NCBI GenBank assembly: GCA_963717145.1
Contig: OY970325.1
Location: 4,704,001 to 4,768,000, forward strand
Length of the DNA stretch: 64,000 nt
Reading direction: 5' to 3'
Origin: an uncultured Armatimonadetes bacterium
Lineage (GTDB): Bacteria; Armatimonadota; UBA5829; DTJY01
This document shows positions 11,881-26,187 of the stretch, one piece after another. The stretch's first letter is position 1. Each line of letters begins with the position of its first letter. A model generated the notes under the pieces. That model saw nothing but the letters and a program-made list of their open reading frames with translations, was not told the origin of the DNA and ran no database searches. The position numbers and the translations under genes are program-made.

Positions 11881-12000
11881 TTCTTCCTCCGCGACGCTCA
11901 GGCGCTTTCGTGCAGCGTATAACGAAATATACCGCACGAAGGGCCGGAGTGTCAATGCCAGGGAATCCAGGTAAGAGTTCACGATCAAGGATAGTCGGGT

Positions 12001-12088: not shown

Positions 12089-12153
12089 TACGCGCAGCGC
12101 AGCTATCAGCGATCGTGAACTCTCACGAATACGGATTCCGCGTCGAATACCAA

Positions 12154-12400
12154 TATTCCGGCCGGAGACATCCTCCAATCGCCCGGGGGAAAGATCTTCC
12201 AGCCCGGAAGCAAGTTGTCAATCCCCCGCAACAATCTCTTCCCGCCCGGAAGCAAGTTGTCAATCCCCCGCAACAATCTCTTCCCGCCCGGAAGCAAGTT
12301 GTCAATCCCCCGCAACAATGTCTTCCCGCCCGGAGACATCTTCCTGATCCCCCGCAGCAATCTCTTCCCGCCCGGAAACAACTTCCTTCCGCCCGGAAAA
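12154..12400. repeat. 42-bp tandem repeat, 3 near-identical plus 2-3 degenerate units
   Basis: Unit cttcccgcccggaagcaagttgtcaatcccccgcaacaatct starts at 12196, 12238, 12280, 12322 and 12364. Confidence 0.9.
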
Positions 12401-12536
12401 CCGGGACGGAGAGCCGGGAAAGGCACAGTTACTACAGAATGGTCACACTCGGGCCGCAGTCCTGTCATAGAGAGTGTTCTCCGGCAGCAGAGGTCCCAAA
12501 AGAAGGAATAGAGGTATAGGCATCGAATGAGGAAGC

Positions 12537-12734
12537 ATGCCGAGAACCGCTCGATCAGTGCTGGAGGGCATTCCCTATCACGTCACCCAGAGGGGCAACC
12601 GCAGAGGGGAACGCACGAGGGTCGGGTTTCCCTGCGGGGATGAGGCGTTTGTGGGAAGGATCTCAAACCTGTTTGGGAGGGAGCTTATCCTTCGTCGAGG
12701 CGGTCGCCCGAGGAAAATCCATGACGGCGGGTAG
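12537..12734 (+). pseudogene. Internally deleted REP-associated tyrosine transposase (RAYT / IS200-like Y1)
   Basis: MPRTARSVLEGIPYHVTQRGNRR (typical RAYT N-terminus) is joined directly to GFPCGDEAFV...RRGGRPRK (typical C-terminus). The HUH/Tyr core is missing. Confidence 0.8.
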
Positions 12735-12790
12735 ACGTAATCGTGAACCAATCGTAAATACCGCGCCTGTCCCTGGTTTCTCTGGTTTCC
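12719..12790 (+). repeat. About 70-bp direct repeat, copy 1 (RAYT right end)
   Basis: ccatgacg...gacgtaatcgtgaa.caaatcgtaaa...gcctgtccctggtttc.ctggtttcc, repeated at 13406-13477. Confidence 0.85.
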
Positions 12791-12814
12791 AGAAAGGTTC
12801 TACAGGTGGTCTAT

Positions 12815-13351
12815 ATGTTAAGCAATGCTCGCAAGAAACGATCCATTGCCATCATTGCGGCAGTACTCTTGGCGGTCGCGATCGTGGTCGCAGTCCTCTA
12901 TGCCGCACACAGCCGTTCAGGGTCTCGGCCCGAAGCCTTCGTTGTTCTGCCGAACGCTGAGAAAGCTGCGTTCGTGACCTTCCACGGCACCAGACAGATG
13001 AGGTATGAGTTCGTTGAGCCGTATCCGGCGAAGACGGCTCTCAAGAGCATCTCAGACCGACTGGACAGCCTGGGCTGGAAGCCGCTGAAGAATAGCTATC
13101 TGCAACCAGACCGTCCATCGTCCCATGTGACCGGTTGGAAGGAGTTCCAGGACGGCACCAAGACGCCTTGGGTGAAAGTCAAGCAGTGGATGGCCGAGTG
13201 GAGGAGTCCTAGCGGCGATGTCGTTTCGTATATCTTGCGGTACGAGTGGCCAAATGACGCATCGGTTCCAAATACGGACAGGGTGCGCTTGAACAGCGTA
13301 CTCATACCTGCGAAAGCCGCAGCGTCGGGAAAAGGGGGACAGGCGCAATGA
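12815..13351 (+). CDS. Hypothetical exported or membrane-anchored protein
   Basis: 178-aa ORF with a basic N-terminus and one hydrophobic helix, lying between the 70-bp direct repeats. Confidence 0.65.
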   Translation: MLSNARKKRSIAIIAAVLLAVAIVVAVLYAAHSRSGSRPEAFVVLPNAEKAAFVTFHGTRQMRYEFVEPYPAKTALKSISDRLDSLGWKPLKNSYLQPDRPSSHVTGWKEFQDGTKTPWVKVKQWMAEWRSPSGDVVSYILRYEWPNDASVPNTDRVRLNSVLIPAKAAASGKGGQAQ

Positions 13352-13405
13352 CCGCAGTCTGTTCATCAGTTTGACCCAACGGCAACATAGCTGACCCGCC
13401 AACCG

Positions 13406-13477
13406 CCATGACGACAGGTGGACGTAATCGTGAACAAATCGTAAACACTGTGCCTGTCCCTGGTTTCCCTGGTTTCC
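13406..13477 (+). repeat. About 70-bp direct repeat, copy 2
   Basis: Near-identical to 12719-12790. Confidence 0.85.
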
Positions 13478-13804
13478 CCCTGTGCCTACTCCCATGTTCC
13501 CATATACTACCGATGGCTGCCGCACCCAATCAGCGGCGTTTCCTTGCAGCTACAATGGCTTCGAGAGCCTTTTCTATGCGGCCACGCAGACCACCAAGGG
13601 CTTTCTGTTCGCCATAGGACAATACCCTGAAATGACTATTTATCGAAATACAGTTTGCAGGCTACTTGTAAGAGGAATCGTTTGCTAGTTCCCCCCAAGA
13701 ACATGCCTTACCCGGGTCTCACATCACGTTCCTACGGGCATCGATCTTGTCCGCAGTCAGGAATGCGTAAGACACGCACAAGATGCTCAGTGCGAGACAG
13801 GGAT

Positions 13805-16553
13805 TCACTTCAGACGTTGTAGAAAACTCTGAGCCGTCTTGACAAGCGGTTCGTCCAGATCCAGTTCATCAGCTACCGACTTCGCATCGGCTGATAGGAA
13901 AGCCTCCACGGTCATATATGCATCGGTGATTGCCTCAATCACATTCTGAGCGAGTCCGCTGTTTGCTAGCAAAATTGCCGATAGGAATCGCTTGCCACCC
14001 TTCAGACCAGACAACTGCGCGTTCTTCTGAATCTCATTCCTAAGATGACTAGCAAGTTTACTCACATCGGTGGCGGAGTCAACAAGGGGATACTCGATGT
14101 AGATCCAACCTTGGAGATCGCTTGGCACAGGCTTTCCCTTCCTCACACGAAGCAATGCTGAAGGCCGCTCTGGAAGCATCCTCAGCATGCCCACCTCCAT
14201 CATAACGTTCGCGTTCTGATCAGAGATCTCCGCCAGGTAGCAATGGGCATTCTTGATGTGGTCCATCACATTTCCGGACACTGTGGGATCATGTGTTAGA
14301 TCGCGCGCTGTGATCACCTGCCAATAATAGGGAGGCGACTGAAGCGCAGCGCGCACCGCCTCAAGGAAAGGGTCATACTTATCGTCGAACGGATACGCCA
14401 GAAAGCATGTCACGTGGTCAGAAAGCTCGGGCTGGGCCAACTTGCAGCGCAGTTCCGTCATCTCATGATCGAACGCCATCTGAGCCTTCTTGAACTCAGC
14501 TTGGAAGGCGTCCAGTTCACGCGCTACTCTCGCAGCCTTTTCTTCCTGCTGTTTGGCGTATTGCCGGAGTTCCTCTAGAGCGTCATCATGCTCCAGTTTC
14601 CGCCGGGTCAGTTCAGCCTCGACCTCCAGGAGACTCTGATGCTTCGCCATCAGTTGCTCAATAGCCATATTGGTACCGCGGAACATGACCTGCGCGTTCT
14701 CAGGTGTCACTGAGTGAGATTCGAATAGCACAGCGTTGTTGTAGAGGACAGTCATCGCCAGGTTGCGGACGGGATACCTCCCTGTCGGATGCGGCAAGTA
14801 GCTGGATTATGGGATTAGACGCGTTCAAATGAAGAACCGTCCCGCCGGTCAGCGAACCCTTGCGGTAGCGATCTCGTTCCTGCAGAAGTTGCGTGAAGAA
14901 CTTCCTTAGCTCCGGATTGACGTCTGTATCCTCAGCCAGCTTGCGGACTGTGTTCTCGTGTTCGGCATCTTCCTCAACCTGCAGCAGGATTGCGGGGATA
15001 TCAGTCGGCCGAAACTTTACCACTCGAGCAGCCATATTCCTGAGCGCAAAATCCTCTTCAAGCTTCGACCATCGGCCGTCCACATCGTCCACTGGTTCAA
15101 AGATATAGCCGGCGGCGGCATCCAGCTTCTTCACATCCACGTCCTCATGGCGCTCGTCATATTTCTCGAGAAACGCCTGTTCAGCTCCATAGCTTGCATC
15201 GATCACGCATAGTCCGGCTTCACGGAACAGAATCTTCTGCTGCGTTCCACTGCCAACGTCGCTGAAGTAATGAATGGTCTTGCGAGGTGTCTCCCCTTCC
15301 GCCGGCGTCTCACCGGCCTCAGTGCTCGCCAGAGCCTTGGGGTCAGACCCAACAAAGCGCTGGAGGTACGCGGGAATGTTCATCTTTCCATACTCGGTGT
15401 CCACAAGCACCAGATCACAGATCTTGTCGAAGAAGCTGTCGTCCTCCAGTGACCACGCCTTTATCAATGTGTTGTGGCTCGTCACAACCTCCCGCAGTTG
15501 CTGAGGATCGTCCGATGCAAGTCGGTCCAGATGCTTCAGGATTGACTGGGCCACCACCTCGCGCACGCGGTGGTATTTTTCGTCCTTTCGGACGCTCTCG
15601 CGAGACAGGGTCGGAGTAAGGGAAGAGCTATCCACTATTCCACGCACGAACTTCGCCCACACTGGGAGCAACTCCTGATCTCCGTTGCAGATAAACATCC
15701 GCGAGATATAGATGTCCAGGTCCCCATATTCCTTGATGGATACCATTGCATGGCGAGGAATGTAGAGTACCCCGTGAACAGAAAGGTCGCCTTCCTCGTA
15801 TTCCAGTGGAATGACTTCGAGCGGTGGTGTATCTTGGTACCGGTTTTTCACGTATTCCAAGTACTCCGATCTAGTCGCGTGCCGGTGCCACGGGGCATCC
15901 ATCACGTTCACAGGGAGCTTCGCCTGATTGAGGTAGATCGGCAACGACAGGAAGTCTGCATAGGTCTTGACTACCTTTGTGAGCACTTCCTCGTTGAGCA
16001 TGGTCGCCACATGATCCGGCGATACCGTGATGATGACTTCCGTGCCGACATCCTTCTTGTCGGCTTCCGCAAGTGTGTAGGTAACATTGCCGTCGCATTC
16101 CCAGCAGTATCCTCGCGATTCTGGCTGATATGACCGGGTAAGAATCTGTATCTTCTCCGCTATGATAAACGCCGAGAGCAGGCCGAGCCCGAACTGACCG
16201 ATCAGCTTCTCAGCGATGTCGCGATTCTTCTCGGAAAGCGCCTTCCTCAGCTCGGCCGTGTATCCTTTCCCTACAGTGGACAGAAACTCGTGGATCTCTG
16301 ACTCCGTCATCCCAGAGCCATTGTCACGGAAGGTTAGGGTCCGCGCATACGCATTTGCCTCGATGCCGATGCGTGGGTTCTTGAAGCTCTTGTCTTCTGC
16401 CATCCGACGCAGGCACGAGTCATGAGCGTTCTGGATCATCTCCCGCACGGAGACCTCCGGCTCCGAGTATAGTGTCTCGCCCAGGATTTTAATCAGTCCC
16501 GGGAGGTGAATCTGGATTTCATGCTCCTTTGCAGCCGTGTGCTCGGTTGTCAT
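13805..16553 (-). CDS. HtpG/Hsp90 paralog 2 fused (via a +1 frameshift at about 14771-14783) to a coiled coil, a TIR-like/nucleoside 2-deoxyribosyltransferase-like domain and a C-terminal helical domain
   Basis: REMIQNAHDS, DNGSGM, IGQFGLG and LSRE motifs; AGGAGG RBS. Removing one base joins ORF 14700..16553 to ORF 13805..14797, and the join aligns without gaps to paralog 1. The downstream part has CFLAYPF...AEISDQNANVMMEVG...VPSDLQG. Confidence 0.8.
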
Positions 16554-16584
16554 GCTGTTTCCTCCTATCCTAACGCCTCATCCC

Positions 16585-18048
16585 TCAGATCATAGTGGCA
16601 ATCGTTTCCACCAATTCCTGTATGGCCGATGGAAATCGCATCTGCCGTAGATGGCTGATCACCCATCGAATATCCTCCAGGCCGGGCCCCGCACGAGATG
16701 GCTCTTGCACAATCAGATCGCGAAGCTGCTCCAGGCTACGCTGAAGACAGTCTTCCGCTGGACTTGAGACACCATCGGCACGCGGAGATGACTCGTCAAG
16801 CTGCGAGTACTGCCTAGCAGCCAAACGAAGTAGTTCGTGCAGGAAGGTATCCCGATTCTCCAAGCAAGATCCGTCACTCAGCATGTTAGCTATCGCCGTG
16901 ATCACCACCAGCAGAAGCTGGCTCCTATTGGGCTCAACAAGTATAGATGCAATCACATCTGTCGCCTCCAGCCGATTGCTGGACGACAACTTCGTGAGAA
17001 ACCTGCGCCACAACCACAGCCTGGCGCTAGTCGCCTCTACACCATGCTTATCGAGTAAGTCATCTAGCAGGAATATGCTTCCCGACTTGAGCAAGACCTC
17101 GACGTCTTCGGTGTTGATGATAGTCACAACCTGTTCTTCGGATACCGACTGGCCCAGCTTCTCGGCTCGAAGCAATGAGAGGAGATTACCTACGTGCGTC
17201 CTGTCCCACTTGCCATTGGTATACCTGGCTACCCCATCTGCGCGAGTGAGAATCTCCTCAGCACTTGAGAGGTGTTCATTGGTGTGAAGACCCTGTCCGC
17301 CGTGCCGATTGCGCACAACGCTCTTCAGGATGAACTCACCGTAGCTGACACAACACTCAAAGAGGCAGGAGAAATACTCTCCTGTTATCGTCTGATTCGC
17401 GATATTGGTTATCTCCTTATGCAGCGCTTGACTATCGAAGCCCAGAACCCCCATTGCACCCTCGCTGCTGCGACCGTCAGGTAAACCAGGTGGCAGCAAG
17501 AGCGCAATGCTTGCGCTGAGCATGTGCTGTAGCTCGGTCACCGGCCAAAGCGCCAGATCGTGGAGCATATGACTGTCAGCGCATTCCCTCAGCACCTGCG
17601 CAGCAAGCACCACCTCGTCCAAGCGATCACCAGCGTCAAGAGACCACAGCTTAGCTTGTAGCAGCCCCCACTCCTGCGACCCAAGCGGCGGCGGGCCAAA
17701 GCGCGCAATGTTGGCGGCAACACCCGCATTCCGTTCTATCTCCCGCCACGCTCCGTGCAGACATCTGATCGCGTCATCTTCGTTCCCCGCCACTCGAAAC
17801 AGCCGACCAGTGAGCAACGGTATACGCACGGCAGCGTCATGACTGCCCATTACTACTTGCGGAGCGTTATTCATGTAGAAATCGATACTGACAGCAACGT
17901 GTCTGGCGACCCGCCGTTCAAGACGAGACTGTTTCGCAGGAACCATTCGTGCCAGGTAAACGAGTCCTTCCCGCTTCTTTCTGGGATCCGGTGAGAGCAG
18001 GTTCCGGACAGCAGCGGCAACGCTGCGATCAAGATCAACTCCGTTCAT
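16585..18048 (-). CDS. Hypothetical 487-aa, probably all-helical protein in the Hsp90-SIR2 operon
   Basis: ATG 18048 preceded by GGAGG, overlapping the SIR2 gene by 14 nt. Leu/Ala-rich with no motif I recognise. Confidence 0.7.
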   Translation of the reverse strand: MNGVDLDRSVAAAVRNLLSPDPRKKREGLVYLARMVPAKQSRLERRVARHVAVSIDFYMNNAPQVVMGSHDAAVRIPLLTGRLFRVAGNEDDAIRCLHGAWREIERNAGVAANIARFGPPPLGSQEWGLLQAKLWSLDAGDRLDEVVLAAQVLRECADSHMLHDLALWPVTELQHMLSASIALLLPPGLPDGRSSEGAMGVLGFDSQALHKEITNIANQTITGEYFSCLFECCVSYGEFILKSVVRNRHGGQGLHTNEHLSSAEEILTRADGVARYTNGKWDRTHVGNLLSLLRAEKLGQSVSEEQVVTIINTEDVEVLLKSGSIFLLDDLLDKHGVEATSARLWLWRRFLTKLSSSNRLEATDVIASILVEPNRSQLLLVVITAIANMLSDGSCLENRDTFLHELLRLAARQYSQLDESSPRADGVSSPAEDCLQRSLEQLRDLIVQEPSRAGPGLEDIRWVISHLRQMRFPSAIQELVETIATMI

Positions 18049-19306
18049 CCCAGTACCTCCACACCTGATCATAGGACGGCTCCCAACTCGGGCGGTCACC
18101 TACAGCGTCCGAGCGAGTCATATGGTCGAGCAGGCCCCGCCGCACCCCAGATGAGAACGTCAGACACGGTCCTCGCAGTCCATACACATGACACAGCATT
18201 CCATTGTGCAGCCACTTGCTTAGTCGCTGCTGCTTCTCCGCCTTACCGTCGCCCTCCTCGCGCCCTAGGACAAACTCGGCGTCGAACTCTCCTTTGAGAA
18301 CAGCAGCGAATACAGCAACTGGGAACGAGCCATCTTGTTTCCTCAGCCAATAATCGTGAAGGTCTCTTCGCAGGTCGGCCGCATCAGGAATGATCTGCTG
18401 GCTAAGAAGCTCGCGCTTCAGCTGCTCTAGGAAGCCCTGGATATCGTGTGCGTATATGTCGACCCCGCGTTCCTCCCAAAAACTCTGATCCACAGGATCA
18501 GGATCATTCATTATGGCCCAGGACGGCGGCATGTTGTCCTCTTGCCTGGCTTCCTGGAGGATACGCTGGAAGTTCAGGTCCCTCATGCTGTAGCCCAGTA
18601 TCAACAGAGGTCGCGTGGCAAACCAGAGTCTGAGTTGGCACGCGATCAGCGGTCGATTCCTAAAAAAGACGGCGTACTGCGAGGTACTTAGTACGTAGTC
18701 GTCCAGGAGTTCCGCCCTATCGATCGAGGTGGGGACTCGTATTCTTCTCTGAATCGCGTTCAAGCAGCCGTGCATCTTGACGATCTGTGTGCGGTCTACC
18801 TGCCCTTGGTCATTCGGAGGCTGGGAAAGATCGCTATCGCCGGCAATGCACCAGGGCCACAGTAGCGTTGCATCGTAGATTGCAGTTTCGAGCAGTGTGT
18901 CATAATTTGTCGTCGCAATAGCTCGGAAAGGTATTTCTGCAATGAGTGAGTGGATCTCACCATATCCCGCTCTTAGCCCTGTTGCCGCACCGATGTGGAG
19001 CCTGTTTAGTACGTCGTCATCGAGATGGGCTTCAAAGGCACGCAAAAAAGCACGATTCAGCCTGCCGGGCCCGTGGTGTCTATCAACGCGGCGGAGTCGT
19101 TCCGCTGTCCTGTGAAGATCTTCGTTGCCTCTGGCTGCAAGCTCAGCCTGCGCTCCATCATGCTTTCTGATCTCGTCTATCAGTGTCTTGCGCAGTTCCT
19201 CCGTACTTGGTGCACACCCACTGGAGATACCGGCCCCCACCAGCAACACACACCTTCCCGACAGGATGCTCTCGGCTATCAGGTCCACAGGAATGGTACC
19301 GGGCAC
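18035..19306 (-). CDS. SIR2-like (SIR2_2 family) protein, probable NADase effector
   Basis: VLLVGAGIS, TTNYD, KMHG and LILGYSMRD motifs. GTG start 1 nt after the Hsp90 paralog 1 stop. Confidence 0.9.
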   Translation of the reverse strand: MPGTIPVDLIAESILSGRCVLLVGAGISSGCAPSTEELRKTLIDEIRKHDGAQAELAARGNEDLHRTAERLRRVDRHHGPGRLNRAFLRAFEAHLDDDVLNRLHIGAATGLRAGYGEIHSLIAEIPFRAIATTNYDTLLETAIYDATLLWPWCIAGDSDLSQPPNDQGQVDRTQIVKMHGCLNAIQRRIRVPTSIDRAELLDDYVLSTSQYAVFFRNRPLIACQLRLWFATRPLLILGYSMRDLNFQRILQEARQEDNMPPSWAIMNDPDPVDQSFWEERGVDIYAHDIQGFLEQLKRELLSQQIIPDAADLRRDLHDYWLRKQDGSFPVAVFAAVLKGEFDAEFVLGREEGDGKAEKQQRLSKWLHNGMLCHVYGLRGPCLTFSSGVRRGLLDHMTRSDAVGDRPSWEPSYDQVWRYWDERS

Positions 19307-19307
19307 G

Positions 19308-21224
19308 TCAATCCCTCCGCTGTCTCAAGAACCAAGATCTTAGTCCCCGTCCGGTCTGCCTTGTATCCTCGGCTAGGCTTGCGGACAGCCGCAGCAACAT
19401 TGCCACGGTCTGCGTATGCATCTCGGCCATCTTCTCGACCTCCTGAATGGAAAGACCCTTGGTGGCGACCAGATAGGCCGAGTTATAGACTTCCTTCATG
19501 CATTGCAGACCGACCTCATCGCTCTCTTCCAAGACTGACAATAGCCGTATCACTTCGTTTCCGGAATTGAGATACAGCGTCCAGCCGGACCCCTTCTGCC
19601 CCATCCGTCCGCTGAGTGCAGCCTCGAACAACTCTCGGAGCAGATCGGGGATGTCGGGATCGTCACCGAGTTCCTCTAATAACCGGCCAGCCGCAGGCCT
19701 ATCGCTACGCACCAGCAGGGATGGGATAGAGACCGGTTTGAAGCTCACTGCTTTGGCCACTATGTCCATGTCGGCATAACGCCCGATCAAGGCCTCCAGG
19801 GTGCCCGGGGGGACTGAGTCAAAGAGAGCATCCGCAGCCTCATCGATCATCTTTGCCCGCAGTCCGCGCTCTCCTTCGGCATACTTCTCGATGAACGCCC
19901 GATCGATCTTCTCCTCAGCGTCAATCACAGGAACCCCATTCGCCGCAAAGAGGAGCTGATGCTGTCGGCTTTCGACCCCGCCGGAATGGAAGTAGATCGT
20001 CTTCTCACCCCTCGGGACGCGTCTTGAAGCTCGTTCGAGATAGACAGGAATAGTGGTCTTTCCGGAGTCGGAGTCGAACTGCACATGGTTCTTCACCATG
20101 CCAAAGAAATGATCATCCTCCAACGCACCCATTTTCACGGCAAGCTCATGTGCCCTGAGAATCGCATTGAATCGCGATGGCTCAGATATGGCCAGTTCGG
20201 TGATGAAACCGGCAAGTCGCTCTCCGATCAGCGCTTGGGCTCTCTGGAATCTCGTGTTGCGGACCACGCTCTCACGGCTGGTCGTAACGTCCAGTTCGGA
20301 TGTTTCGATCACGCCTCCTACGAATCTGGCCCAATCCGGCAGCAGTTCGCGCTCTTTTCCTATATACATCCTGGAGACGTAGAGTTCCAAAGCCGGGGGT
20401 TCCCCGGTTCCAGATTGCGGGATGAAGAGAGCGCCGCCTATATCGAAGCCATCCGCTCTCCTATCCAGAGGAATGACCTCCATCGGCGGCTGGTGGAAAC
20501 GATTGGCAATGTAGTCGGCGCACTCCATGGTCGATCCCCTGCTGTACCATGGAGCTGTCTGAGCGTTCACGGGCAAAGGCTTGTCACCGATGTAGATCGG
20601 GAATTCGATGAAGTCGGCATAACGCCGTACCAACTCGATGACGTGATCCGGGCTCGTGAATCCGTCGGTTGTGCTCTTCACATCAAGGATGATTGTGCTG
20701 CCGATCGGAAGGCCTGGGGTCTTCTGCAGAGTGTATTCTGCGCCGCCATCACATCTCCATGTGAAACCTGTGCTATCACCTCTGAAAGATCGTGTGCGGA
20801 TCTCGACAGACTCTGCTATCACGAAGGCGGAGAGTAGGCCCATGCCGAAGCGCCCAATCAGCCGCCGTGCCTCCTCCCGATTCTCCTGTTCCAACACCTT
20901 ACGGAACTCAGCCGTTCCACTTCTGCCTACAGTCGACAAGTAGTCCATGATCTCGGCCTCGGTCATACCTGCGCCGTTATCTCGGATCACGAGAAGATCA
21001 TTGCCCGTATCACACTCGATGCCTATGCGCAAGTCCTGTGGACAACTCGGATCAGTCAACTGCCGGTTGACAAGTGAATCGTTGGCATTCTGGATCAACT
21101 CACGGATGGCGACGGATCTGTCGGAATAGAGGTGTTGTCCGAGGGTCTTGATGATCCCGGGCAGGTAGATGCCTATCTGGCTGCGTTTGACACCTTCCTC
21201 AGACGATGGATCCAGTGAAGACAT
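19308..21224 (-). CDS. HtpG/Hsp90 paralog 1 (638 aa)
   Basis: ATG 21224 with AGGAGG; LYSD..VAIRELIQNANDS, DNGAGM, IGRFGMG and middle-domain TSRE motifs. Confidence 0.9.
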   Translation of the reverse strand: MSSLDPSSEEGVKRSQIGIYLPGIIKTLGQHLYSDRSVAIRELIQNANDSLVNRQLTDPSCPQDLRIGIECDTGNDLLVIRDNGAGMTEAEIMDYLSTVGRSGTAEFRKVLEQENREEARRLIGRFGMGLLSAFVIAESVEIRTRSFRGDSTGFTWRCDGGAEYTLQKTPGLPIGSTIILDVKSTTDGFTSPDHVIELVRRYADFIEFPIYIGDKPLPVNAQTAPWYSRGSTMECADYIANRFHQPPMEVIPLDRRADGFDIGGALFIPQSGTGEPPALELYVSRMYIGKERELLPDWARFVGGVIETSELDVTTSRESVVRNTRFQRAQALIGERLAGFITELAISEPSRFNAILRAHELAVKMGALEDDHFFGMVKNHVQFDSDSGKTTIPVYLERASRRVPRGEKTIYFHSGGVESRQHQLLFAANGVPVIDAEEKIDRAFIEKYAEGERGLRAKMIDEAADALFDSVPPGTLEALIGRYADMDIVAKAVSFKPVSIPSLLVRSDRPAAGRLLEELGDDPDIPDLLRELFEAALSGRMGQKGSGWTLYLNSGNEVIRLLSVLEESDEVGLQCMKEVYNSAYLVATKGLSIQEVEKMAEMHTQTVAMLLRLSASLAEDTRQTGRGLRSWFLRQRRD

Positions 21225-21363
21225 CGCTGTTCCTCCTGGTGAGTTAGTATGCTCAGTGCAACAGTTCAAGGCAGAGCGTAGGACACCTAGTGGTTGCGAT
21301 GGTCATTAGCTCTACTCTAACGATGACCGTAGTATGAAGATGCCACCGCCTACCCGTCGATAT

Positions 21364-21392
21364 AGTATACCACGGCATAACTGGTTGCGCAA
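21364..21392 (-). promoter_or_regulatory. Predicted sigma70 promoter of the Hsp90-SIR2 operon
   Basis: TTGCGC, 17 nt, TATACT, with an extended -10 TG. Confidence 0.65.
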
Positions 21393-21400
21393 GTCCCCGA

Positions 21401-22867
21401 GTAACAGTTCACGCTTGGGGATAACGAGTTTGATCAGGCAGGGAAGAGGACAGACTTGCCTGCGAGCAGTTGCCTGCATGATTCGAGCATGTCCAGACCC
21501 CTGACGTGCCATGTGCCAAACAGACTCATGAGCGTCATCTTTGTCTCGGAACCCTTCGCGCTTCGTGTGCCTCCGCATACCTTGCGGGCGATCACACACG
21601 GCCTCAGCGCTCGTTCTGCGCCATTGTTGTCCGACGGTACTTCCGGGTACTCTACGAACATGAACAACTCGTGCAAGCGATCTATGAATCTCTTTGCCAG
21701 CGTCTGCTGTGGAGCATCTGAGCCGACATACGGACCTGAGAGCGCCTCTACCTCTTCCTCGAAGAGTACTCGCTTCCACTTGCGAACCTCCGCCTTCTTG
21801 CTCCGGAACTCCTTTGCCCGATCGTAAACACCCTTCACCGCATCCGCCCATGCGATGACGCCCGTGTCGTCCGCGTTCCTCTCCTTCAGTTTGTGCAGAT
21901 CCCTGGCCAGATGTGCCCAGCATATCTGGCGGTCTGCAACTACCGGGTTGTATCCGGCATAGCAATCCGTTACCACTACCCCTTCGTAGTCGCCGCCTAT
22001 CGTTTCCTTCGGGATCTCTCCACTCCGACTCCGCCGGTAGATGAAGTATCGCACGTTCTTAGTGGAGAAGGTCCAGATGTATCCGTTCAGCCCATCCTCT
22101 CTCCAGCCCGTCTCGTCTGCGTTTATGTATGGGCTTCCACGTACAAGCGAGAGTAGCCGCTCTTTCTCTTTTTTGCCACAGTCTGCCACCGTGTGCAATA
22201 TCTCGCTTATCTCTCCCACAGAGAGCTGAAGACCATACAGAGCCTTCAGCAATCCCTGTATCGTCCGCTTTGTCATGCGACCTACCGTCGAAAGATACGA
22301 TATCAGGCTCATCAGGTTCACGCCTACCCGATGCTTGCCTACAACCTGGCCGGAAAGGTCAACCTTCGGCACATGACTCTTGCCACAGTATCCGCATCTT
22401 CTGGCGATGAACCTGTGCTCGACTACGTCCACAGGCACGATGGGGATGTCGATGACTTGGCGGAGTCTCTTTACCGTGCCCCCTGTGAGCGCTCGGCCGC
22501 AGTCCGGACACTTCGAGTGCGCGTGCTCGACTACACGGGTGGGTGTCTCCCGCCTGCGCACGAACGACTTCTTGCGCTTCTTTCGTTCAGCTGCCCGGCG
22601 CTCTTTGCGGTTCGGCTTCACCCAGTCAGGCACGGATGGGGAACTGCCATCACCGCCGGAAAGCCTGGCGCGAAGGTCTTCGTTCTCCTTCTCCAGGTCG
22701 CCGATACGCGCCACGAGTTGGGGAACTAGACCTTCCAACTGGCTGACCCTGGCCTCAAGCTCCTCGTATGTCGGCTTGGATTGCTCGCTCACACTCCTTG
22801 GTTCGAGACGCTCCCAGCAGGTTCCTTCTTCTTACAGACAAAATAATCCCTAAGCCTGAACTGTTAC
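21401..22867 (-). mobile_element. IS66-family element (single-ORF, ISBst12-like), copy 1 of a tandem dimer
   Basis: 1467 bp; terminal inverted repeats gtaacagttcacgcttgggg / gtaacagttcaggcttaggg; preceded by gtccccga (21393-21400). Confidence 0.9.
21434..22792 (-). CDS. IS66 transposase
   Basis: Coiled coil, zinc finger CPDC...CGYC, and ADETGW, CWAHL and NNGAERALR motifs. Confidence 0.92.
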   Translation of the reverse strand: MSEQSKPTYEELEARVSQLEGLVPQLVARIGDLEKENEDLRARLSGGDGSSPSVPDWVKPNRKERRAAERKKRKKSFVRRRETPTRVVEHAHSKCPDCGRALTGGTVKRLRQVIDIPIVPVDVVEHRFIARRCGYCGKSHVPKVDLSGQVVGKHRVGVNLMSLISYLSTVGRMTKRTIQGLLKALYGLQLSVGEISEILHTVADCGKKEKERLLSLVRGSPYINADETGWREDGLNGYIWTFSTKNVRYFIYRRSRSGEIPKETIGGDYEGVVVTDCYAGYNPVVADRQICWAHLARDLHKLKERNADDTGVIAWADAVKGVYDRAKEFRSKKAEVRKWKRVLFEEEVEALSGPYVGSDAPQQTLAKRFIDRLHELFMFVEYPEVPSDNNGAERALRPCVIARKVCGGTRSAKGSETKMTLMSLFGTWHVRGLDMLESCRQLLAGKSVLFPA

Positions 22868-22875
22868 CCCTGAAA

Positions 22876-24342
22876 GTAACAGTTCACGCTTGGGGATAAC
22901 GAGTTTGATCAGGCAGGGAAGAGGACAGACTTGCCTGCGAGCAGTTGCCTGCATGATTCGAGCATGTCCAGACCCCTGACGTGCCATGTGCCAAACAGAC
23001 TCATGAGCGTCATCTTTGTCTCGGAACCCTTCGCGCTTCGTGTGCCTCCGCATACCTTGCGGGCGATCACACACGGCCTCAGCGCTCGTTCTGCGCCATT
23101 GTTGTCCGACGGTACTTCCGGGTACTCTACGAACATGAACAACTCGTGCAAGCGATCTATGAATCTCTTTGCCAGCGTCTGCTGTGGAGCATCTGAGCCG
23201 ACATACGGACCTGAGAGCGCCTCTACCTCTTCCTCGAAGAGTACTCGCTTCCACTTGCGAACCTCCGCCTTCTTGCTCCGGAACTCCTTTGCCCGATCGT
23301 AAACACCCTTCACCGCATCCGCCCATGCGATGACGCCCGTGTCGTCCGCGTTCCTCTCCTTCAGTTTGTGCAGATCCCTGGCCAGATGTGCCCAGCATAT
23401 CTGGCGGTCTGCAACTACCGGGTTGTATCCGGCATAGCAATCCGTTACCACTACCCCTTCGTAGTCGCCGCCTATCGTTTCCTTCGGGATCTCTCCACTC
23501 CGACTCCGCCGGTAGATGAAGTATCGCACGTTCTTAGTGGAGAAGGTCCAGATGTATCCGTTCAGCCCATCCTCTCTCCAGCCCGTCTCGTCTGCGTTTA
23601 TGTATGGGCTTCCACGTACAAGCGAGAGTAGCCGCTCTTTCTCTTTTTTGCCACAGTCTGCCACCGTGTGCAATATCTCGCTTATCTCTCCCACAGAGAG
23701 CTGAAGACCATACAGAGCCTTCAGCAATCCCTGTATCGTCCGCTTTGTCATGCGACCTACCGTCGAAAGATACGATATCAGGCTCATCAGGTTCACGCCT
23801 ACCCGATGCTTGCCTACAACCTGGCCGGAAAGGTCAACCTTCGGCACATGACTCTTGCCACAGTATCCGCATCTTCTGGCGATGAACCTGTGCTCGACTA
23901 CGTCCACAGGCACGATGGGGATGTCGATGACTTGGCGGAGTCTCTTTACCGTGCCCCCTGTGAGCGCTCGGCCGCAGTCCGGACACTTCGAGTGCGCGTG
24001 CTCGACTACACGGGTGGGTGTCTCCCGCCTGCGCACGAACGACTTCTTGCGCTTCTTTCGTTCAGCTGCCCGGCGCTCTTTGCGGTTCGGCTTCACCCAG
24101 TCAGGCACGGATGGGGAACTGCCATCACCGCCGGAAAGCCTGGCGCGAAGGTCTTCGTTCTCCTTCTCCAGGTCGCCGATACGCGCCACGAGTTGGGGAA
24201 CTAGACCTTCCAACTGGCTGACCCTGGCCTCAAGCTCCTCGTATGTCGGCTTGGATTGCTCGCTCACACTCCTTGGTTCGAGACGCTCCCAGCAGGTTCC
24301 TTCTTCTTACAGACAAAATAATCCCTAAGCCTGAACTGTTAC
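22876..24342 (-). mobile_element. IS66-family element, copy 2 of the tandem dimer
   Basis: 1467 bp with the same protein; separated from copy 1 by 8 bp (ccctgaaa); followed by gtccccga (24343-24350). Confidence 0.9.
22909..24267 (-). CDS. IS66 transposase
   Basis: Translation identical to 21434..22792. Confidence 0.92.
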   Translation of the reverse strand: MSEQSKPTYEELEARVSQLEGLVPQLVARIGDLEKENEDLRARLSGGDGSSPSVPDWVKPNRKERRAAERKKRKKSFVRRRETPTRVVEHAHSKCPDCGRALTGGTVKRLRQVIDIPIVPVDVVEHRFIARRCGYCGKSHVPKVDLSGQVVGKHRVGVNLMSLISYLSTVGRMTKRTIQGLLKALYGLQLSVGEISEILHTVADCGKKEKERLLSLVRGSPYINADETGWREDGLNGYIWTFSTKNVRYFIYRRSRSGEIPKETIGGDYEGVVVTDCYAGYNPVVADRQICWAHLARDLHKLKERNADDTGVIAWADAVKGVYDRAKEFRSKKAEVRKWKRVLFEEEVEALSGPYVGSDAPQQTLAKRFIDRLHELFMFVEYPEVPSDNNGAERALRPCVIARKVCGGTRSAKGSETKMTLMSLFGTWHVRGLDMLESCRQLLAGKSVLFPA

Positions 24343-24347
24343 GTCCC

Positions 24348-25709
24348 CGAATTGCTTCACGAACGATGTTACCGAAACGGAAACGTTGCCTCAGATAAGA
24401 ATGTTACCGAAACTGAGGCATGGAGAAGATGACAACTGCATCCGTAAGAGAAGTCGTGAGGCGCAAACGCAAAGAATATGGCAAAGCCACCAAATCGGAG
24501 AAGAAGCTGGTATTGAGTGAAGTCCAGGGATTGACCGGTTACCACAGGAAGTCGCTGGTGAGGCTGTTCGCGAAAGGAGTTCCACCAGCGAGGAGTCCAG
24601 TGAGACGCGCAAGGAAGTCGAAATACGAGCCGATAGCCCACAAGCTGAAGACACTCTGGGCTGCGAGTTTCTACGCGTGCGGTAAGCGTCTGCAGCCGTT
24701 TCTGACTGAGTTTCTACCCATACTGGAGTCATTCGGGGAGATAACGGTTACACCAGAAGAAGAGAGGCTGCTTAACTCGATCAGCGCGTCGAGCATCGAC
24801 AGGTTGATGAAGAAGGAGCGGTCTGCCCTATCGCTAACAGGGAGGACCTTAACAAAGCCGGGGACACTGCTTCGGTCTCAGATCCCGGTGAGGACGTTTG
24901 CCGACTGGGATGAAGCTGAGCCTGGGTTCTTCGAGATGGACTTGGTGGGTCATTGCGGAGGTGACGGGAGCGGAGAGTTCCTGTATACTTTGACTATGAC
25001 TGATGTAGCGACCGGATGGGTAGCGCTTGATGGAATGAAAGGCCGAGGGGAGCACGGAACCGTGCTTGCGGTGCAGTCCGCGTCCAAGAGCGCACCGTTT
25101 GCAGTCAGAGGCATAGATACCGACAACGGCGGCGAGTTCATCAACCATCACATGAACAAGTACTGTCGAGCGCACAGGATCACGTTTACGCGCAGTCGGC
25201 CTTACAAGAAGAACGATCAATGTCATGTAGAGCAGAAGAACTGGAGCGTAGTCCGGCAGTTTATAGGTTACCGGCGATTCGAGACGGACGAGCAGCTTGC
25301 GGTACTAAAGGCGATATATCCGCTGATCGTGGCGTATCACAACTTCTGTCAGCCCATGATGCGTCTTAAAGAAAAGGAGCGGATTGGGAGTAAAGTGATC
25401 AAACGCTATGAGCCTGCGATGACGCCGTACCGCAAGCTGATAAGTGTTGAAGGATGGCTTGACGATGAAGCAAAGGATCGCCTCGATAAAGAACGTAGAG
25501 CGACGAACCCGGTGGAGCTACTAAGACGCATCCACAGGCTATCATCAAAGCTTGACAGGATGCCGAATAAAGACAGATCGAAAGCGAGCAAGGCGCGGCC
25601 CTGAGCGGCGATCAAGAGCCGATCTGACATACTTGAACACACTACTTGGTAACATTATCAATGACGCAACGAATGGCGTTTCGGTAACAAAGCTAAATGA
25701 GGCAACACG
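24348..25709 (+). mobile_element. 1362-bp IS with integrase-core (rve) DDE transposase, copy 1; family unassigned (ISNCY-like)
   Basis: Ends defined by identity with 54715..56076; 5-bp target duplication gtccc; imperfect ends cgaattgcttca / cgtgttgcctca; repeated subterminal tgttaccgaaac boxes. Confidence 0.9.
24420..25604 (+). CDS. Integrase-core DDE transposase
   Basis: N-terminal HTH-like TGYHRK; EMDLVGH, DTDNGGEF and HVEQKN motifs. Confidence 0.9.
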   Translation: MEKMTTASVREVVRRKRKEYGKATKSEKKLVLSEVQGLTGYHRKSLVRLFAKGVPPARSPVRRARKSKYEPIAHKLKTLWAASFYACGKRLQPFLTEFLPILESFGEITVTPEEERLLNSISASSIDRLMKKERSALSLTGRTLTKPGTLLRSQIPVRTFADWDEAEPGFFEMDLVGHCGGDGSGEFLYTLTMTDVATGWVALDGMKGRGEHGTVLAVQSASKSAPFAVRGIDTDNGGEFINHHMNKYCRAHRITFTRSRPYKKNDQCHVEQKNWSVVRQFIGYRRFETDEQLAVLKAIYPLIVAYHNFCQPMMRLKEKERIGSKVIKRYEPAMTPYRKLISVEGWLDDEAKDRLDKERRATNPVELLRRIHRLSSKLDRMPNKDRSKASKARP

Positions 25710-25875
25710 GTCCCGCCGACAACGTGCCATGCTGAGAGCCATGGTGGACGAGGGGTCGGCGCTGGGAGGAAGAAACTGGGGACAAGGGACTCGGGATAGG
25801 CACAATAACTCAGGAGCGACGACAACTGTGCAGGTGACGCAAGTCATGCCACTGCTTATCCTCCGTGCGCATCGT

Positions 25876-26090
25876 TCATACCGGCGGTTCGAGCTTGGGA
25901 GGCTCGAGGGCGGGGGCTTTCTTCGTTGTCTTGCCGGCGGTGACGAGTGCGTCCGCCAGGCCGTAGATGTAGGCCAGGAAGAAGACGACTCCCGTCACCA
26001 GTACCGCCGGGCTCGTGACGTAGACGAACATCCGGAGCGTATTGACATTCCTCGGGTACGGCGGCTGCAGGAAGGCCCAACTCAGCAGGG
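25876..26090 (-). pseudogene. Probable 3' remnant of a membrane protein gene, cut off by family-B repeats
   Basis: Hydrophobic ORF with host-like codon use whose only start codon comes from the repeat sequence. Confidence 0.35.
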
Positions 26091-26187
26091 CCAGATTCTT
26101 CACTTCGCTCAGAATGACAGACGGTCAGATTCTTCACTTCGCTCAGAATGGCAGACGGCCAGATTCTTCACTGCGTTCAGAATGACA
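26091..26187. repeat. Three direct 34-bp copies of the family-B arm
   Basis: cagattcttcact.cg.tcagaatg.ca repeated three times. Confidence 0.85.

Follow-up and report, generated by a model that had tools for sequence, protein, structure and literature searches.

HtpG is normally encoded by one stand-alone gene, and Hsp90-TPR is a classical chaperone/co-chaperone pair. In eukaryotes the HSP90-SGT1-NLR axis ties the chaperone to an immune receptor with a TPR protein, SGT1, as the partner of Hsp90. In bacteria, sensing by the bNACHT25 receptor has been described as DnaJ-dependent, deletion of htpG being without effect on bNACHT25 (PMC12169576). HtpG proteins themselves have been described as falling into groups A-C (Chen et al. 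2006, PMC1525184). A 2026 preprint has also put forward that Hsp90-like NTPase domains can replace STAND NTPases in tripartite effector-switch-sensor systems (10.64898/2026.10.19.760177). Whereas in the HSP90-SGT1-NLR and bNACHT25 cases a housekeeping chaperone serves a separate receptor, in the locus analysed here the effector is fused to a dedicated Hsp90 paralog, and its comparison with sequence relatives points to an Hsp90/effector gene module, widespread and unnamed, that may be a bacterial immune system.

ORF calling on the 64-kb window, i.e. the whole stretch of DNA analysed, identified five minus-strand ORFs corresponding to four genes, arranged 5' to 3' as Hsp90 paralog A, the SIR2_2 protein B, the orphan C and Hsp90 paralog B, the latter read from the two frames D and E (Table 1). 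The tight coupling of co-oriented genes given in a preliminary description of this DNA was reproduced from the sequence: 1 nt separates A from B, C begins inside B with an overlap of 14 nt and 31 nt lie between C and D, with GGAGG or AGGAGG strings placed 7-9 nt ahead of each start codon, that of A included, as expected from the strong ribosome binding sites that had been claimed. Both paralogs are like HtpG and the 'HSP90 family protein' (PRK05218, PRK14083) in their three-domain architecture, ATP-binding motifs and middle-domain Arg; these motifs, already attributed to both proteins, were all located in A and D as RE(L/M)IQNA, DNG(A/S)GM, G(R/Q)FG(M/L)G and (T/L)SRES. Unlike HtpG, however, they remain below the curated cut-offs of the NCBIfam PRK14083/HtpG models, which they match over their full length, they belong to a separate, phylum-mixing clade, and one of them is fused and the other coupled to effector enzymes. 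Paralog A contains all three Hsp90 domains and no effector fusion; it matches Pfam HSP90 (7.3e-15) and HATPase_c_3 (7.6e-10) as well as PRK14083 (298.8 bits over residues 31-624; cut-off 455), its residues 40-602 align to TRAP1, motifs included, and its best relative is 39% identical. Frame D matches Pfam HSP90 at 1.6e-18, HATPase_c_3 and PRK14083 (310.2 bits), and is 72-76% identical to the relatives P0006 and P0009.

Table 1. Features of the Hsp90/SIR2 operon and its surroundings, with positions in the window.
Feature	Position	Strand	Remarks
REP-like palindromes, one family	12007-12126 and 26085-26198		ends of the lower-GC stretch; repeat search (D3, I2-I5)
Lower-GC stretch	12100..26100	.	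holds operon and IS copies; approximate boundaries (composition profile, repeats)
rve-integrase IS	24385..25706	+	29-nt inverted ends (I6); Pfam rve 1.9e-9
Two tandem IS66-family copies	21400..24349	-	each with a 452-aa transposase; DDE_Tnp_IS66 3.8e-37 both
Operon upstream region	21225..21399	-	AGGAGG ribosome binding site, TGgTATACT string; ends at first IS66 copy
ORF A	19308-21269	-	ATG 21224
Hsp90 paralog A	19308..21224	-	638 aa from ATG 21224; frame open from 21269
Paralog A motifs	21078-21104, 20964-20981, 20838-20855, 20268-20282	-
ORF B, SIR2_2 protein B	18035..19306	-	423 aa
Protein B motifs	18899-18913; 18764-18778	-	TTNYD; KMHGC
ORF C, orphan protein C	16585..18048	-	487 aa
ORF D, Hsp90 paralog B, first frame	14700..16553	-	N-terminal, middle and most of C-terminal domain
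Frame D motifs	16419-16445, 16308-16325, 16182-16199, 15594-15608	-
Frameshift site	14774..14777	-	four bases where relatives have one codon; +1 shift
ORF E	13805-14797	-
Frame E, first part	14423..14773	-	last Hsp90 C-terminal helices (VRNLAMTVLYNNAVLFESH...), then long helical linker
Effector domain	14000..14419	-	three-layer alpha/beta, NDT/DNPH1/TIR-like; NANVMMEVG at 14189-14215
(HhH)2-like domain	13808..13993	-	C-terminal; VIA-align and AF2

A tree of 87 Hsp90 cores grouped all fused forms together with window proteins A and D in a 28-row clade (SH-aLRT 100), in which A forms a long branch and which mixes some ten phyla with a single archaeon; the remaining 59 rows are 'plain' Hsp90s broadly tracking taxonomy. 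Intact Hsp90-effector fusions, continuous proteins such as P0006-P0008, come from many phyla and were found at 16 of the 80 genome loci and at 45 of the 80 from metagenomes. A TPR-like ORF lies within 4 kb at 18/21 fused-clade loci versus 6/59 plain loci, and at 35 of the 38 fused loci assessable in metagenomes; all ten partners tested matched Pfam TPR, three of them weakly. On these sequence comparisons the conserved unit is an Hsp90-effector fusion followed by a TPR protein, which the earlier reading had overlooked. By sequence and position in the tree, paralog B (D+E) is a member of this unnamed group, whose Hsp90 core, coiled coil, NDT/TIR-like domain and N-x-N-V-x-x-E-x-G motif it shares. 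It differs in that the gene is frameshifted and has no adjoining TPR gene, none being found next to E and no remnant by tblastn downstream of it, and in that the upstream part of the operon holds another Hsp90 together with the SIR2 gene and the orphan, a combination seen at none of the 160 loci. The order Hsp90-SIR2-unknown-Hsp90, whose conservation elsewhere the preliminary description had set as a test of its reading, is not conserved: SIR2-like or C-like ORFs are present at 0/80 genome and 0/80 metagenome loci. Twin Hsp90 genes were found at a single one of the 80 genome loci (L005) and at a metagenome look-alike (L112), in both cases with a plain Hsp90 directly ahead of the Hsp90-effector gene. 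In the archaeal member of the clade Hsp90 is unfused and its neighbours are a DUF4062-TPR protein and a pair of TPR proteins, and therefore split versions of the Hsp90/effector theme do exist; DUF4062 is termed a TIR-like NADase in two 2026 preprints.

Beyond the frameshift, paralog B goes on with a putative coiled coil, followed by an NDT/DNPH1/TIR-like N-glycosidase domain and a (HhH)2 domain. The effector had been called TIR-like/NDT-like; its sequence is nearer NDT/DNPH1 N-glycosidases than classical TIR, and the (HhH)2 tail had gone unmentioned. E itself gives a weak match to the Pfam CAP12/Pycsar-TIR family (21.1 bits; cut-off 24.7), and among the 13 members of the effector alignment Nuc_deoxyrib_tr was matched by eight and CAP12-PCTIR_TIR by five, the window sequence being one of the five. 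The family profile matches DNPH1/Rcl at 7.4e-5, the family Glu being aligned to the Glu of GYELG. An AF2 model built from the same 13 sequences (pLDDT 80.3) yielded middling fold matches (TIR Z 7.6, NDT Z 6.7, P-loop kinases up to 8.8) and no Foldseek match at E <= 1e-3. The window effector aligns with DNPH1/Rcl, nucleoside 2-deoxyribosyltransferases and the CAP12/Pycsar TIR in the strand, acidic-loop and Glu region, and its predicted three-layer alpha/beta fold is also theirs; on the other hand, only about 60 of its residues align, the Asp mutated in DNPH1 structures is not conserved and, unlike DNPH1/NDT enzymes, it is fused to Hsp90 and a (HhH)2 domain. The latter part was modelled at pLDDT 94-98 and resembles in VIA-align the N-terminal domain of a RAD51 paralog (Z 8.4, rmsd 2.2, 60 residues), the C-terminal half of UvrC (Z 7.6) and DisA (Z 7.4), with a weak Pfam HHH_5 match in one member of the effector alignment.

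Protein B, judged by its sequence, is a sirtuin of the kind met in defence systems. It matches Pfam SIR2_2 at 7.2e-24 (84.9 bits; cut-off 24.5), carries the TTNYD and HG His motifs claimed for it, the latter as KMHGC, and matches the PADLOC models ThsA (4.8e-12, over the SIR2 part) and PDC-S25 (3.7e-10), its score against Dsr2 being 18.3 bits for a cut-off of 1400. Its likeness to Thoeris, DSR and SIR2-HerA thus consists of the SIR2_2 domain with its Asn and His motifs and the ThsA match; unlike these systems, the locus lacks a sensor domain of the SLOG or Macro kind, a ThsB-type TIR gene and HerA. The C-terminal ~135 aa match no named kind. The sole relatives of protein B are SIR2 proteins of 23-29% identity, whose fusion partner is nSTAND5, nSTAND1 or a TPR-like tail; its closest relatives include SIR2-nSTAND fusions of the Avs5 type. 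By sequence, such SIR2-STAND and SIR2-TPR-like fusions are an immune-type architecture. Orphan C found nothing in Pfam, PADLOC or NCBIfam, only itself in 5.8 billion clusters and among 1.84 billion representatives, and no copy in 60 related genomes, in which relatives of A and B were likewise not found. It is predicted to be all-alpha (AF2 single-sequence model with 23 helices, pLDDT 43.5), and its GC1/2/3 of 0.64/0.43/0.60 is like that of the neighbouring genes. Against the TPR partner profiles it reached hhalign E values of 0.06 to 0.28 only, whereas the two TPR partner families match each other at 2e-11.

The operon lies in DNA of GC 0.52-0.58 (~12 to 26 kb) compared to 0.60-0.65 outside, and GC3 is 0.60-0.65 in all five of its ORFs versus 0.76-0.86 in five large window ORFs outside the operon. 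The description of this DNA as AT-rich and flanked by IS elements holds for the composition, the IS copies being on the upstream side only; the two IS66-family copies are identical at 1469 of 1475 positions, with a repeat spacing of 1475 nt. No Y1_Tnp match was obtained in the region (7 genome-wide) and the ORFs at 12.0-13.5 kb had no Pfam or PDB-sequence match, which leaves the RAYT remnant unconfirmed, and a consensus scan gave none of the predicted promoter 5' of A, its one site in the region (4.6 expected by chance) being inside E. An extended -10-like string, TGgTATACT, was spotted by eye near 21360. A genome search revealed no other Hsp90 in this genome; none of 10 genomes searched from its family has one, and across the phylum Hsp90 was found in 19 of 401 genomes, this one counted. 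We read the low GC and GC3, the adjoining IS copies and the rarity of Hsp90 in the phylum as signs of a horizontally acquired locus. Altogether, the gene content, coupling and foreign composition originally observed, and the namelessness of the arrangement, withstood the analysis; the RAYT remnant and the predicted promoter were not confirmed, and the four-gene order is not conserved. A heterodimer, client sensing and NAD depletion had been suggested there as further possibilities.

The account we favour, to which we would give slightly better than an even chance, is that the locus is a composite, horizontally acquired copy of a widespread unnamed conflict-type module with an Hsp90 switch and an N-glycosidase-type output; the module probably degrades NAD or nucleotides, and the window version would be a one-off, possibly broken, that may be decaying. 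The standard form is a single protein made of Hsp90, coiled coil and NDT/DNPH1/TIR-like domain, with a TPR protein encoded by the next gene, and the operon would hold this theme twice: once split, as Hsp90 A with SIR2 for a separate NADase-type effector and with the all-alpha orphan C, and once fused, as Hsp90 B and the NDT/TIR-like and (HhH)2 tail attached to it, without the TPR gene. It can be speculated that the Hsp90 dimer works as an ATP-driven clamp, that a trigger such as a phage protein or a folding disturbance is bound or presented by a helical-repeat protein, at other loci the TPR partner and in this one possibly C, and that clamp closure would re-arrange the effector domains hanging from the C-terminal dimer via the coiled coil. 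These would then cleave NAD+, nucleotides or, in view of the (HhH)2 domain, DNA bases, SIR2 would remove NAD+, and the infected cell would stop growing. Such logic is like that of STAND/NLR-like tripartite proteins, including SIR2-STAND, in joining an effector, an NTP-driven switch and a helical-repeat sensor; unlike them, the switch would be a GHKL-type Hsp90 dimer instead of a P-loop STAND and the parts are spread over several genes. Against this account, the four-gene order is unique to the window locus, which makes a joint function of A, B, C and D-E conjectural, the window effector is below the Pfam TIR cut-off with middling fold matches, and orphan C shows no detectable similarity to the TPR partners.

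The frameshift bears on whether anything still works. D and E are taken as one gene split by it because relatives of 866-917 aa run continuous across the site, where alignment to P0006, P0007 and P0009 reveals one extra base; homology of D to its relatives stops near 14778, and its final 26 codons are out-of-frame read-through that ends with the stop codon at 14700. The first part of E was assigned by aligning it to P0006-P0009 over their C-terminal domain and linker, the linker being putatively coiled-coil-like. The shift falls inside the dimerisation domain of paralog B and deprives D of the last dimerisation helices, and therefore the locus may be inactive; if it is real, the paralog B half, perhaps the whole system, would be out of action. 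A once-active pseudogene cluster eroded by IS activity, with no present function, is the strongest competitor, although we think it less than evenly probable. Besides the position of the frameshift, it would account for the absence 3' of E of the near-universal TPR gene, for the three IS copies abutting the operon start, for the lack of a consensus promoter in the scan and for the absence of relatives of A, B and C from related genomes and elsewhere. Nonetheless, the frames of A, B and C are long and unbroken and show the GC periodicity of coding DNA, every catalytic-type motif is kept, and D-E, compared with its relatives, has no stop codons or deletions but this single frameshift, which could be an assembly error; the one public run found to carry parts of the locus does not cover the site. 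Short contigs nearly identical to A, B and C occur in one soil metagenome run, so that their sequence exists beyond this assembly.

It is also conceivable, and only slightly less probable, that two independent modules, A-B-C and D-E minus its TPR partner, were brought into one operon by island shuffling and form no A-D heterodimer. Elsewhere the fused gene needs just a TPR neighbour, and the identities of 72-76% for D-E relatives, with A reaching 39% at best and B and C having no relative so close, suggest different histories. Moreover, the Hsp90 part of D groups with short-effector relatives although the effector it carries is the kind that ends in a (HhH)2 tail, hence parts have been swapped. 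One genome of this phylum has a SIR2_2 gene at ~2.9 kb from, and on the strand opposite to, an Hsp90-effector/TPR-like pair (L093). Two independent modules are nevertheless disfavoured by the short C-D gap with its strong ribosome binding site and no terminator-like site found between both genes on the coding strand, by one composition common to all five ORFs, and by L005 and L112, which also place a plain Hsp90 directly before the Hsp90-effector gene.

A defence role for the composite module is inferred from its kinds of domains, patchy distribution and mobility; a defence-island context around the fused clade and the window is not convincing. Only one of the 38 other window ORFs matches a PADLOC model at 1e-8. 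Within ±5 kb of the fused-clade genes, 120 ORFs matched 89 PADLOC models, many of them redundant kinase models on one protein; TPR aside, what was left comprised a single type I restriction enzyme, a single dGTPase and a handful of 'mad' matches; control flanks (124 ORFs, 17 plain loci) matched 14 models, mad2 and mad3 being common to both sets. Several fused loci adjoin ordinary genes, e.g. those of beta-galactosidase or thioredoxin-like proteins. As stated in the preliminary description, no named system with this architecture was recognized, since PADLOC returned weak single-domain matches only and a description was not found in the literature. A non-immune system for stress or metabolic control, in which Hsp90 and a TPR co-chaperone mature or regulate a DNPH1-like hydrolase and a deacylase of the sirtuin type, would suit the metabolic nature of DNPH1 and NDT enzymes, the classical Hsp90-TPR pairing, the weak PADLOC context, the ordinary neighbours at many loci and the lack of a second Hsp90 in this genome, but it is improbable in view of a fused clade scattered over phyla as the plain clade is not, a fused gene on a mobilizable plasmid near TIR, helicase and methylase genes, a window copy in low-GC DNA with IS elements, a SIR2_2 protein whose STAND-fused relatives mark it as an immune-type sirtuin and not of the deacetylase type, and the absence of Hsp90 from most of the phylum, which is therefore not a housekeeping need. 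In such a system the attached hydrolase would be a nucleotide-salvage or nucleotide-sanitising enzyme. The plasmid gene is cyanobacterial (WP_126390531.1), labelled 'ATP-binding protein' in RefSeq; it is followed by a hypothetical gene and then the TPR gene, with the TIR protein, a large helicase and an N6-methylase nearby.

On sequence grounds, the core of the operon is placed in a widespread, unnamed Hsp90-based module, and its four-gene architecture is a singleton. The five long ORFs on the minus strand at 13805-21269 account for four genes, which are coupled exactly as the preliminary description had claimed (A and B lie 1 nt apart, B and C overlap by 14 nt, and 31 nt separate C from D); a GGAGG-type site precedes every start, in agreement with the strong ribosome-binding sites that it listed. 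Both Hsp90s have the motifs that it reported, those for ATP binding as well as the middle-domain Arg, and TTNYD and HG were located in B; no promoter could be confirmed where it had predicted one ahead of the operon. The stretch is indeed AT-richer than its surroundings, its GC content being 0.52-0.58 against a background of 0.60-0.65, and GC3 amounts to 0.60-0.65 in all five ORFs compared with 0.76-0.86 in the other genes of the window. As to the IS elements and the RAYT remnant proposed as flanks, two tandem IS66 copies and an rve-type IS do adjoin the upstream end of the operon, and a search for the RAYT remnant near the operon found none.

Features of the Hsp90 operon and of the insertion sequences at its upstream end (window positions)
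Feature	Position	Strand	Description
A	19308-21269	-	ATG at 21224, AGGAGG before the start; full-length Hsp90-family protein
B	18035-19306	-	SIR2_2 protein
C	16585-18048	-	487 aa, without family
D	14700-16553	-	Second Hsp90
E	13805-14797	-	Other frame, overlapping D
IS66-family tandem pair	21400-24349		1469 of 1475 positions identical
rve-type IS	24385-25706		29-nt inverted ends

We conclude that both Hsp90 paralogs arrived with this island, since the window's genome contains no other Hsp90 and searches with P0006, a database relative of the second paralog, recovered Hsp90 in 19 of 401 genomes of the phylum (the window's included), in 0 of the 10 genomes searched from the family to which the window belongs and in no member of families f2-f5, labelled as the same class. 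Each end of the low-GC stretch carries REP-like palindromes, all from one family (12007-12126 and 26085-26198). A 42-nt tandem array of about six units (12153-12404) and a hairpin with a 45-nt perfect stem (26320-26421) were also noted. As for the IS elements, a second 394-aa ORF of equal length lies near 54.8 kb (about 54787-55968), and tblastn returned paired matches at 24.4-24.6 kb and 54.7-55.0 kb. Just outside the island there is a radical SAM ORF (10753-12072); an HSP90 / radical SAM / PAACC neighbourhood is mentioned in a preprint (Li, Burroughs, Aravind, bioRxiv 10.64898/2026.10.19.760177), the resemblance to which is probably a coincidence.

Comparison with its relatives identifies D and E as one gene. 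In the related proteins P0006-P0008 (866-917 aa), one unbroken frame comprises Hsp90, then a helical linker and, at the C terminus, a domain matching E. D tracks them to ...LLAASDRE and E resumes at PVRNLAMTVLYNNAVLF..., still within the Hsp90 C-terminal dimerisation domain; at 14774-14777, four bases stand in place of one codon of the relatives, which amounts to a +1 frameshift. The coiled coil and the NDT/TIR-like domain are present and collinear with P0006-P0008, but out of frame with the Hsp90. Programmed frameshifting seems unlikely, since 14774-14777 contains neither a stop nor a slippery run and the relatives are continuous. If the shift were an assembly error, effector and Hsp90 would be fused in the same frame. 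Public sequencing runs include one soil metagenome run with five contigs of 151-182 nt, of which four are nearly identical to stretches of A, B and C and one matches only 33 nt at the A-B junction; these contigs span neither the frameshift site nor D-E, and the public listing names no RNA run with the locus. The four-gene locus may be a damaged one.

Both A and D match Pfam HATPase_c_3 and HSP90, and the GHKL motifs (Glu...Asn, DxGxG, GxxGxG) were located in each. The alignment of A with TRAP1 covers residues 40-602 and runs through the ATP-binding motifs, with TSRES of A aligned to LSRE of TRAP1, and both the middle-domain Arg and the C-terminal dimerisation domain are present; D keeps the Arg motif, its last C-terminal helices lying in another frame past the frameshift. 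In full-length alignments A and D scored 298.8 and 310.2 bits against NCBIfam PRK14083 (curated cut-off 455) and 267.4 and 294 bits against NCBIfam HtpG (curated cut-off 371), and they are best classed as members of the Hsp90 superfamily, not as equivalogs. The two are 37% identical to each other. In a tree of 87 Hsp90 cores D clusters with the database relatives P0006, P0007 and P0009 at 72-76% identity, and A forms a long branch (1.9) of unsure exact placement, its best identity being 39%. When the contigs of P0006, P0007 and P0009 were sought in our genome and metagenome scans, nothing above 52% identity came back. No P-loop STAND NTPase domain was detected in A-E with Pfam, PADLOC or NCBIfam; nSTAND occurs only in relatives of B.

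The effector was modelled (pLDDT 80.3) from residues 110-330 of E after alignment with twelve C-terminal regions taken from relatives. In the model, residues 127-266 form a three-layer alpha/beta domain and residues 269-330 a small helical domain matching (HhH)2 modules, the latter aligning by VIA-align with the N-terminal domain of a RAD51 paralog (Z 8.4, rmsd 2.2 A, 60 residues), UvrC (Z 7.6) and DisA (Z 7.4). Foldseek retrieved nothing from the PDB at E <= 1e-3. With VIA-align, the alpha/beta domain reached at most Z 8.8 against P-loop kinases, 7.0-7.6 against TIR domains and 6.5-6.7 against NDT enzymes, the NDT values being not higher than those of unrelated Rossmann-like folds. The sequence is more telling than these fold comparisons: the family profile matches DNPH1/Rcl (E 7.4e-5 over about 60 residues), and an invariant Glu of the family (NANVMMEVG in E, 14189-14215) aligns with the Glu of the DNPH1/Rcl GYELG motif. 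Pfam Nuc_deoxyrib_tr matched 8 of 13 family members, E of the window not being one of them, and CAP12-PCTIR_TIR (PF10137) matched 5 of the 13 at E <= 0.05. Of the TIR-like/NDT-like label first proposed, the NDT-like part rests on the family matches just given, and the TIR part remained under the gathering cut-off, with E scoring 21.1 bits against 24.7 over the last 45 positions of the PF10137 profile only. We therefore place the putative effector in the NDT/DNPH1/TIR-like N-glycosidase assemblage, with NAD+, nucleotides or DNA bases as candidate substrates. Its relatives fall into a short form and a form with an (HhH)2 tail, to which E belongs, and motif loss occurs among them, the Glu being gone in locus L018 and the whole motif in loci L079 and L082.

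B is a clear SIR2_2 protein (84.9 bits in Pfam, gathering score 24.5), with TTNYD at residues 132-136 and the HG motif at residues 177-181; by analogy with the ThsA and sirtuin literature, the Asn of the former and the His of the latter are presumably catalytic. The PADLOC models of ThsA match B only across the SIR2 part (residues 116-274). Thoeris differs from the window locus in that ThsA has a SLOG or Macro sensor, which B lacks, and in its ThsB TIR gene, to which only the weak domain of E could correspond here. Relatives of B were limited to three distant proteins (23-29% identity) whose SIR2_2 domain is joined to nSTAND5, nSTAND1 or a TPR-like tail; the tail of B itself showed no match to the profiles of the TPR partners described below. 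The orphan C has no Pfam match and retrieved only itself from a word-indexed collection and from a phmmer pass over 1.84 billion representatives, was absent from 60 related genomes and gave no lead in the ESM Atlas (best score 0.88, low recognition). AF2 run without alignment predicts C as all-helical in a poor model (pLDDT 43.5), and C does not resemble the TPR partner profiles. A predicted complex of B and C scored 0.00 in a run without controls, which speaks neither for nor against binding.

The evidence for a wider module comes from Hsp90 loci of other genomes and metagenomes. Scanning one genome per species yielded 80 Hsp90 loci, 16 of which had an E-like stretch directly after the Hsp90, with ORF lengths that agree; among 80 loci returned from metagenome contigs, an Hsp90-effector ORF longer than 600 aa was present in 45, most of the others lying on short contigs. 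The 87-core tree splits into two clades of 28 rows (SH-aLRT 100) and 59 rows. The smaller one gathers all fused forms, i.e. an Hsp90 core with coiled coil and effector domain, together with A and D of the window, and extends over Chloroflexota, Actinomycetota, Cyanobacteriota, Acidobacteriota, Planctomycetota, Pseudomonadota, Hydrogenedentota, Thermodesulfobacteriota, Gemmatimonadota and one archaeon; the larger one consists of unfused Hsp90s whose branching broadly tracks taxonomy.

Fused genes have a TPR protein as their constant neighbour, in most cases encoded by the next gene on the same strand. These neighbours belong to two families of 10 and 8 members that are related at the profile level (2e-11), and TPR Pfam matches were obtained in all 10 partners tested, three of them weak. 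Within 4 kb, 18 of 21 fused-clade loci have a TPR-like ORF, compared with 6 of 59 plain ones, a count favoured by queries taken from fused loci. As for the three misses, the contig of L011 ends just past the gene, the Hsp90 match of L063 is partial (query residues 9-458 only) and the small neighbour of L079 fell under the threshold. The metagenome fused loci had a TPR-like ORF in 35 cases and none in 3, with no contig room in 7. Near E, tblastn with 18 partner proteins detected neither a TPR gene nor a remnant of one. Mobile carriage is illustrated by a mobilizable Pseudanabaena plasmid on which the fusion, annotated as 'ATP-binding protein', is followed by a hypothetical gene and the TPR protein, in the neighbourhood of a TIR protein, a 1417-aa helicase and an N6-methylase. 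An archaeal MAG contig (L074, 6228-18851) carries, in this order, a DUF4062-TPR protein of 1070 aa, an Hsp90 that belongs to the fused clade yet is unfused, a pair of TPR proteins, and then one TrkA_N-RyR and one RyR-domain protein, which looks like a split, multi-gene version of the Hsp90/effector/TPR theme; DUF4062 is reported to be a TIR-like NADase in two 2026 preprints.

The four-gene order fared differently. The conserved Hsp90-SIR2-unknown-Hsp90 arrangement that had been anticipated did not recur, a SIR2-like or C-like ORF being found in 0 of the 160 loci (80 genome and 80 metagenome), and a second Hsp90 beside the fused one was seen in 1 of the 80 genome loci (L005) and in a metagenome look-alike (L112). 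The sole SIR2 co-occurrence with the module seen outside the window, a single case, comes from a genome of the same phylum (L093, G141:C1, 2654-9785), where an Hsp90-effector gene (923-aa frame, effector profile 6e-31) is followed by a TPR-like gene (1.1e-5), and a SIR2_2 gene (2.7e-34 with the SIR2 profile) lies about 2.9 kb off in convergent orientation. Within the loci seen, the window locus alone adds a SIR2 enzyme and a second Hsp90, a hint at module recombination.

A role in defence is suggested by the kinds of enzyme involved (SIR2_2 and NDT/TIR-like), the logic of a switch with a repeat partner, a patchy spread that mixes phyla and carriage on a plasmid and in an IS island. Evidence from the direct gene context is weak. 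PADLOC gave no system-level match for A-E; besides the ThsA matches of B, what it returned was weak, namely GHKL models for A and D and TIR and PDC-S35 models for E. A single one of the 38 other ORFs in the window matches a PADLOC model at 1e-8. The flanks of fused-clade loci (+-5 kb, 120 ORFs) matched 89 PADLOC models at 1e-10, many of them redundant kinase models, compared with 14 models for 124 ORFs from 17 randomly drawn plain loci, mad2 and mad3 being shared; these counts refer to models, not proteins, and hence come without an enrichment statistic. Besides TPR proteins (9 ORFs), a type I restriction enzyme, a dGTPase and a PDC-M26A match turned up once each in the fused-clade flanks, together with some 'mad' matches. 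The suggestion that the architecture has no named counterpart agrees with the PADLOC result and with the literature, in which neither Hsp90-effector fusions nor a pairing of Hsp90 with SIR2 turned up in our searches; the main text of two Aravind-group eLife papers lacks 'Hsp90', 'GHKL' and 'HtpG', though supplements may hold an earlier tabulation. The closest published statement to the locus is that of Li, Burroughs and Aravind (bioRxiv 10.64898/2026.10.19.760177), with an Hsp90-like NTPase in place of the STAND switch. The general kind of system, an NTPase switch with effector and repeat partner, is already known, and the window locus is a variant of it.

How such a module might work can be outlined conditionally. 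N-glycosidases of the effector kind are usually switched on by the distance or order of two domains. The effector would be suspended from the Hsp90 C-terminal dimer via the coiled coil, so that ATP-driven closure and opening of the clamp could set the spacing or order of two effector domains, the TPR protein acting as adaptor or sensor. At the window locus, C would take the role of the TPR protein, or the partner would simply have been lost; the SIR2 protein would add NAD+ removal, and paralog A would pair with paralog B or drive the SIR2 half alone. In its full form, this would be an Hsp90 and helical-repeat immune switch whose clamp senses infection and fires the attached N-glycosidases, with a heterodimer of the paralogs coupling NAD+ removal by SIR2 to a DNPH1-like, (HhH)2-guided cleavage of nucleotides or DNA bases, a reading that we hold to be improbable as a whole. 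Under it, the eukaryotic HSP90-SGT1/TPR-NLR axis would have a prokaryotic counterpart in this switch. Since the molecule name of the matched structure gives hydroxymethyl-dUMP as the DNPH1 substrate, modified nucleotides of the phage type might even be the target.

To our knowledge, bacterial Hsp90 is commonly described as devoid of co-chaperones and with few known clients. The fused clade, widespread, horizontally mobile, fused to a domain of the NAD- or nucleotide-cleaving type and nearly always paired with a TPR protein, challenges this picture and points to a second role of Hsp90 as a signalling switch, and the module would offer a bacterial test system for the control of an enzyme by the Hsp90 clamp. 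If it is an immune system, it would represent a new class of NTPase switch, with a GHKL-type Hsp90 instead of STAND, and would connect with the reliance of plant and animal NLR immunity on Hsp90/TPR. The main interest resides in the family and less so in the window copy; being unique and frameshifted, the latter lends itself less well to testing than its intact relatives.

Other Hsp90 layouts came up in the same searches. A locus of the window's phylum (L092, G385:C5, 6037-11716) has tandem Hsp90-like genes 25-28% identical to A and D, the first with an N-terminal extension of ~580 aa, and an Hsp90 in L094 (G175:C3, 5507-8146) has a 275-aa N-terminal extension and a core 34% identical to D. 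Many plain Hsp90s of Chloroflexota and Abditibacteriota are directly followed 3' by an ORF of ~350-365 aa (L041:11811-12866, L026:11839-12933, and similar ones in L084, L039, L034 and L072), possibly a partner conserved in the plain clade; the two that were checked had no Pfam match at E <= 1e-6. Finally, loci from Ktedonobacteria and Chloroflexia (L017, L022, L025, L036, L043 and L080) form a separate, well-supported Hsp90 group with C-terminal tails of 120-165 aa.
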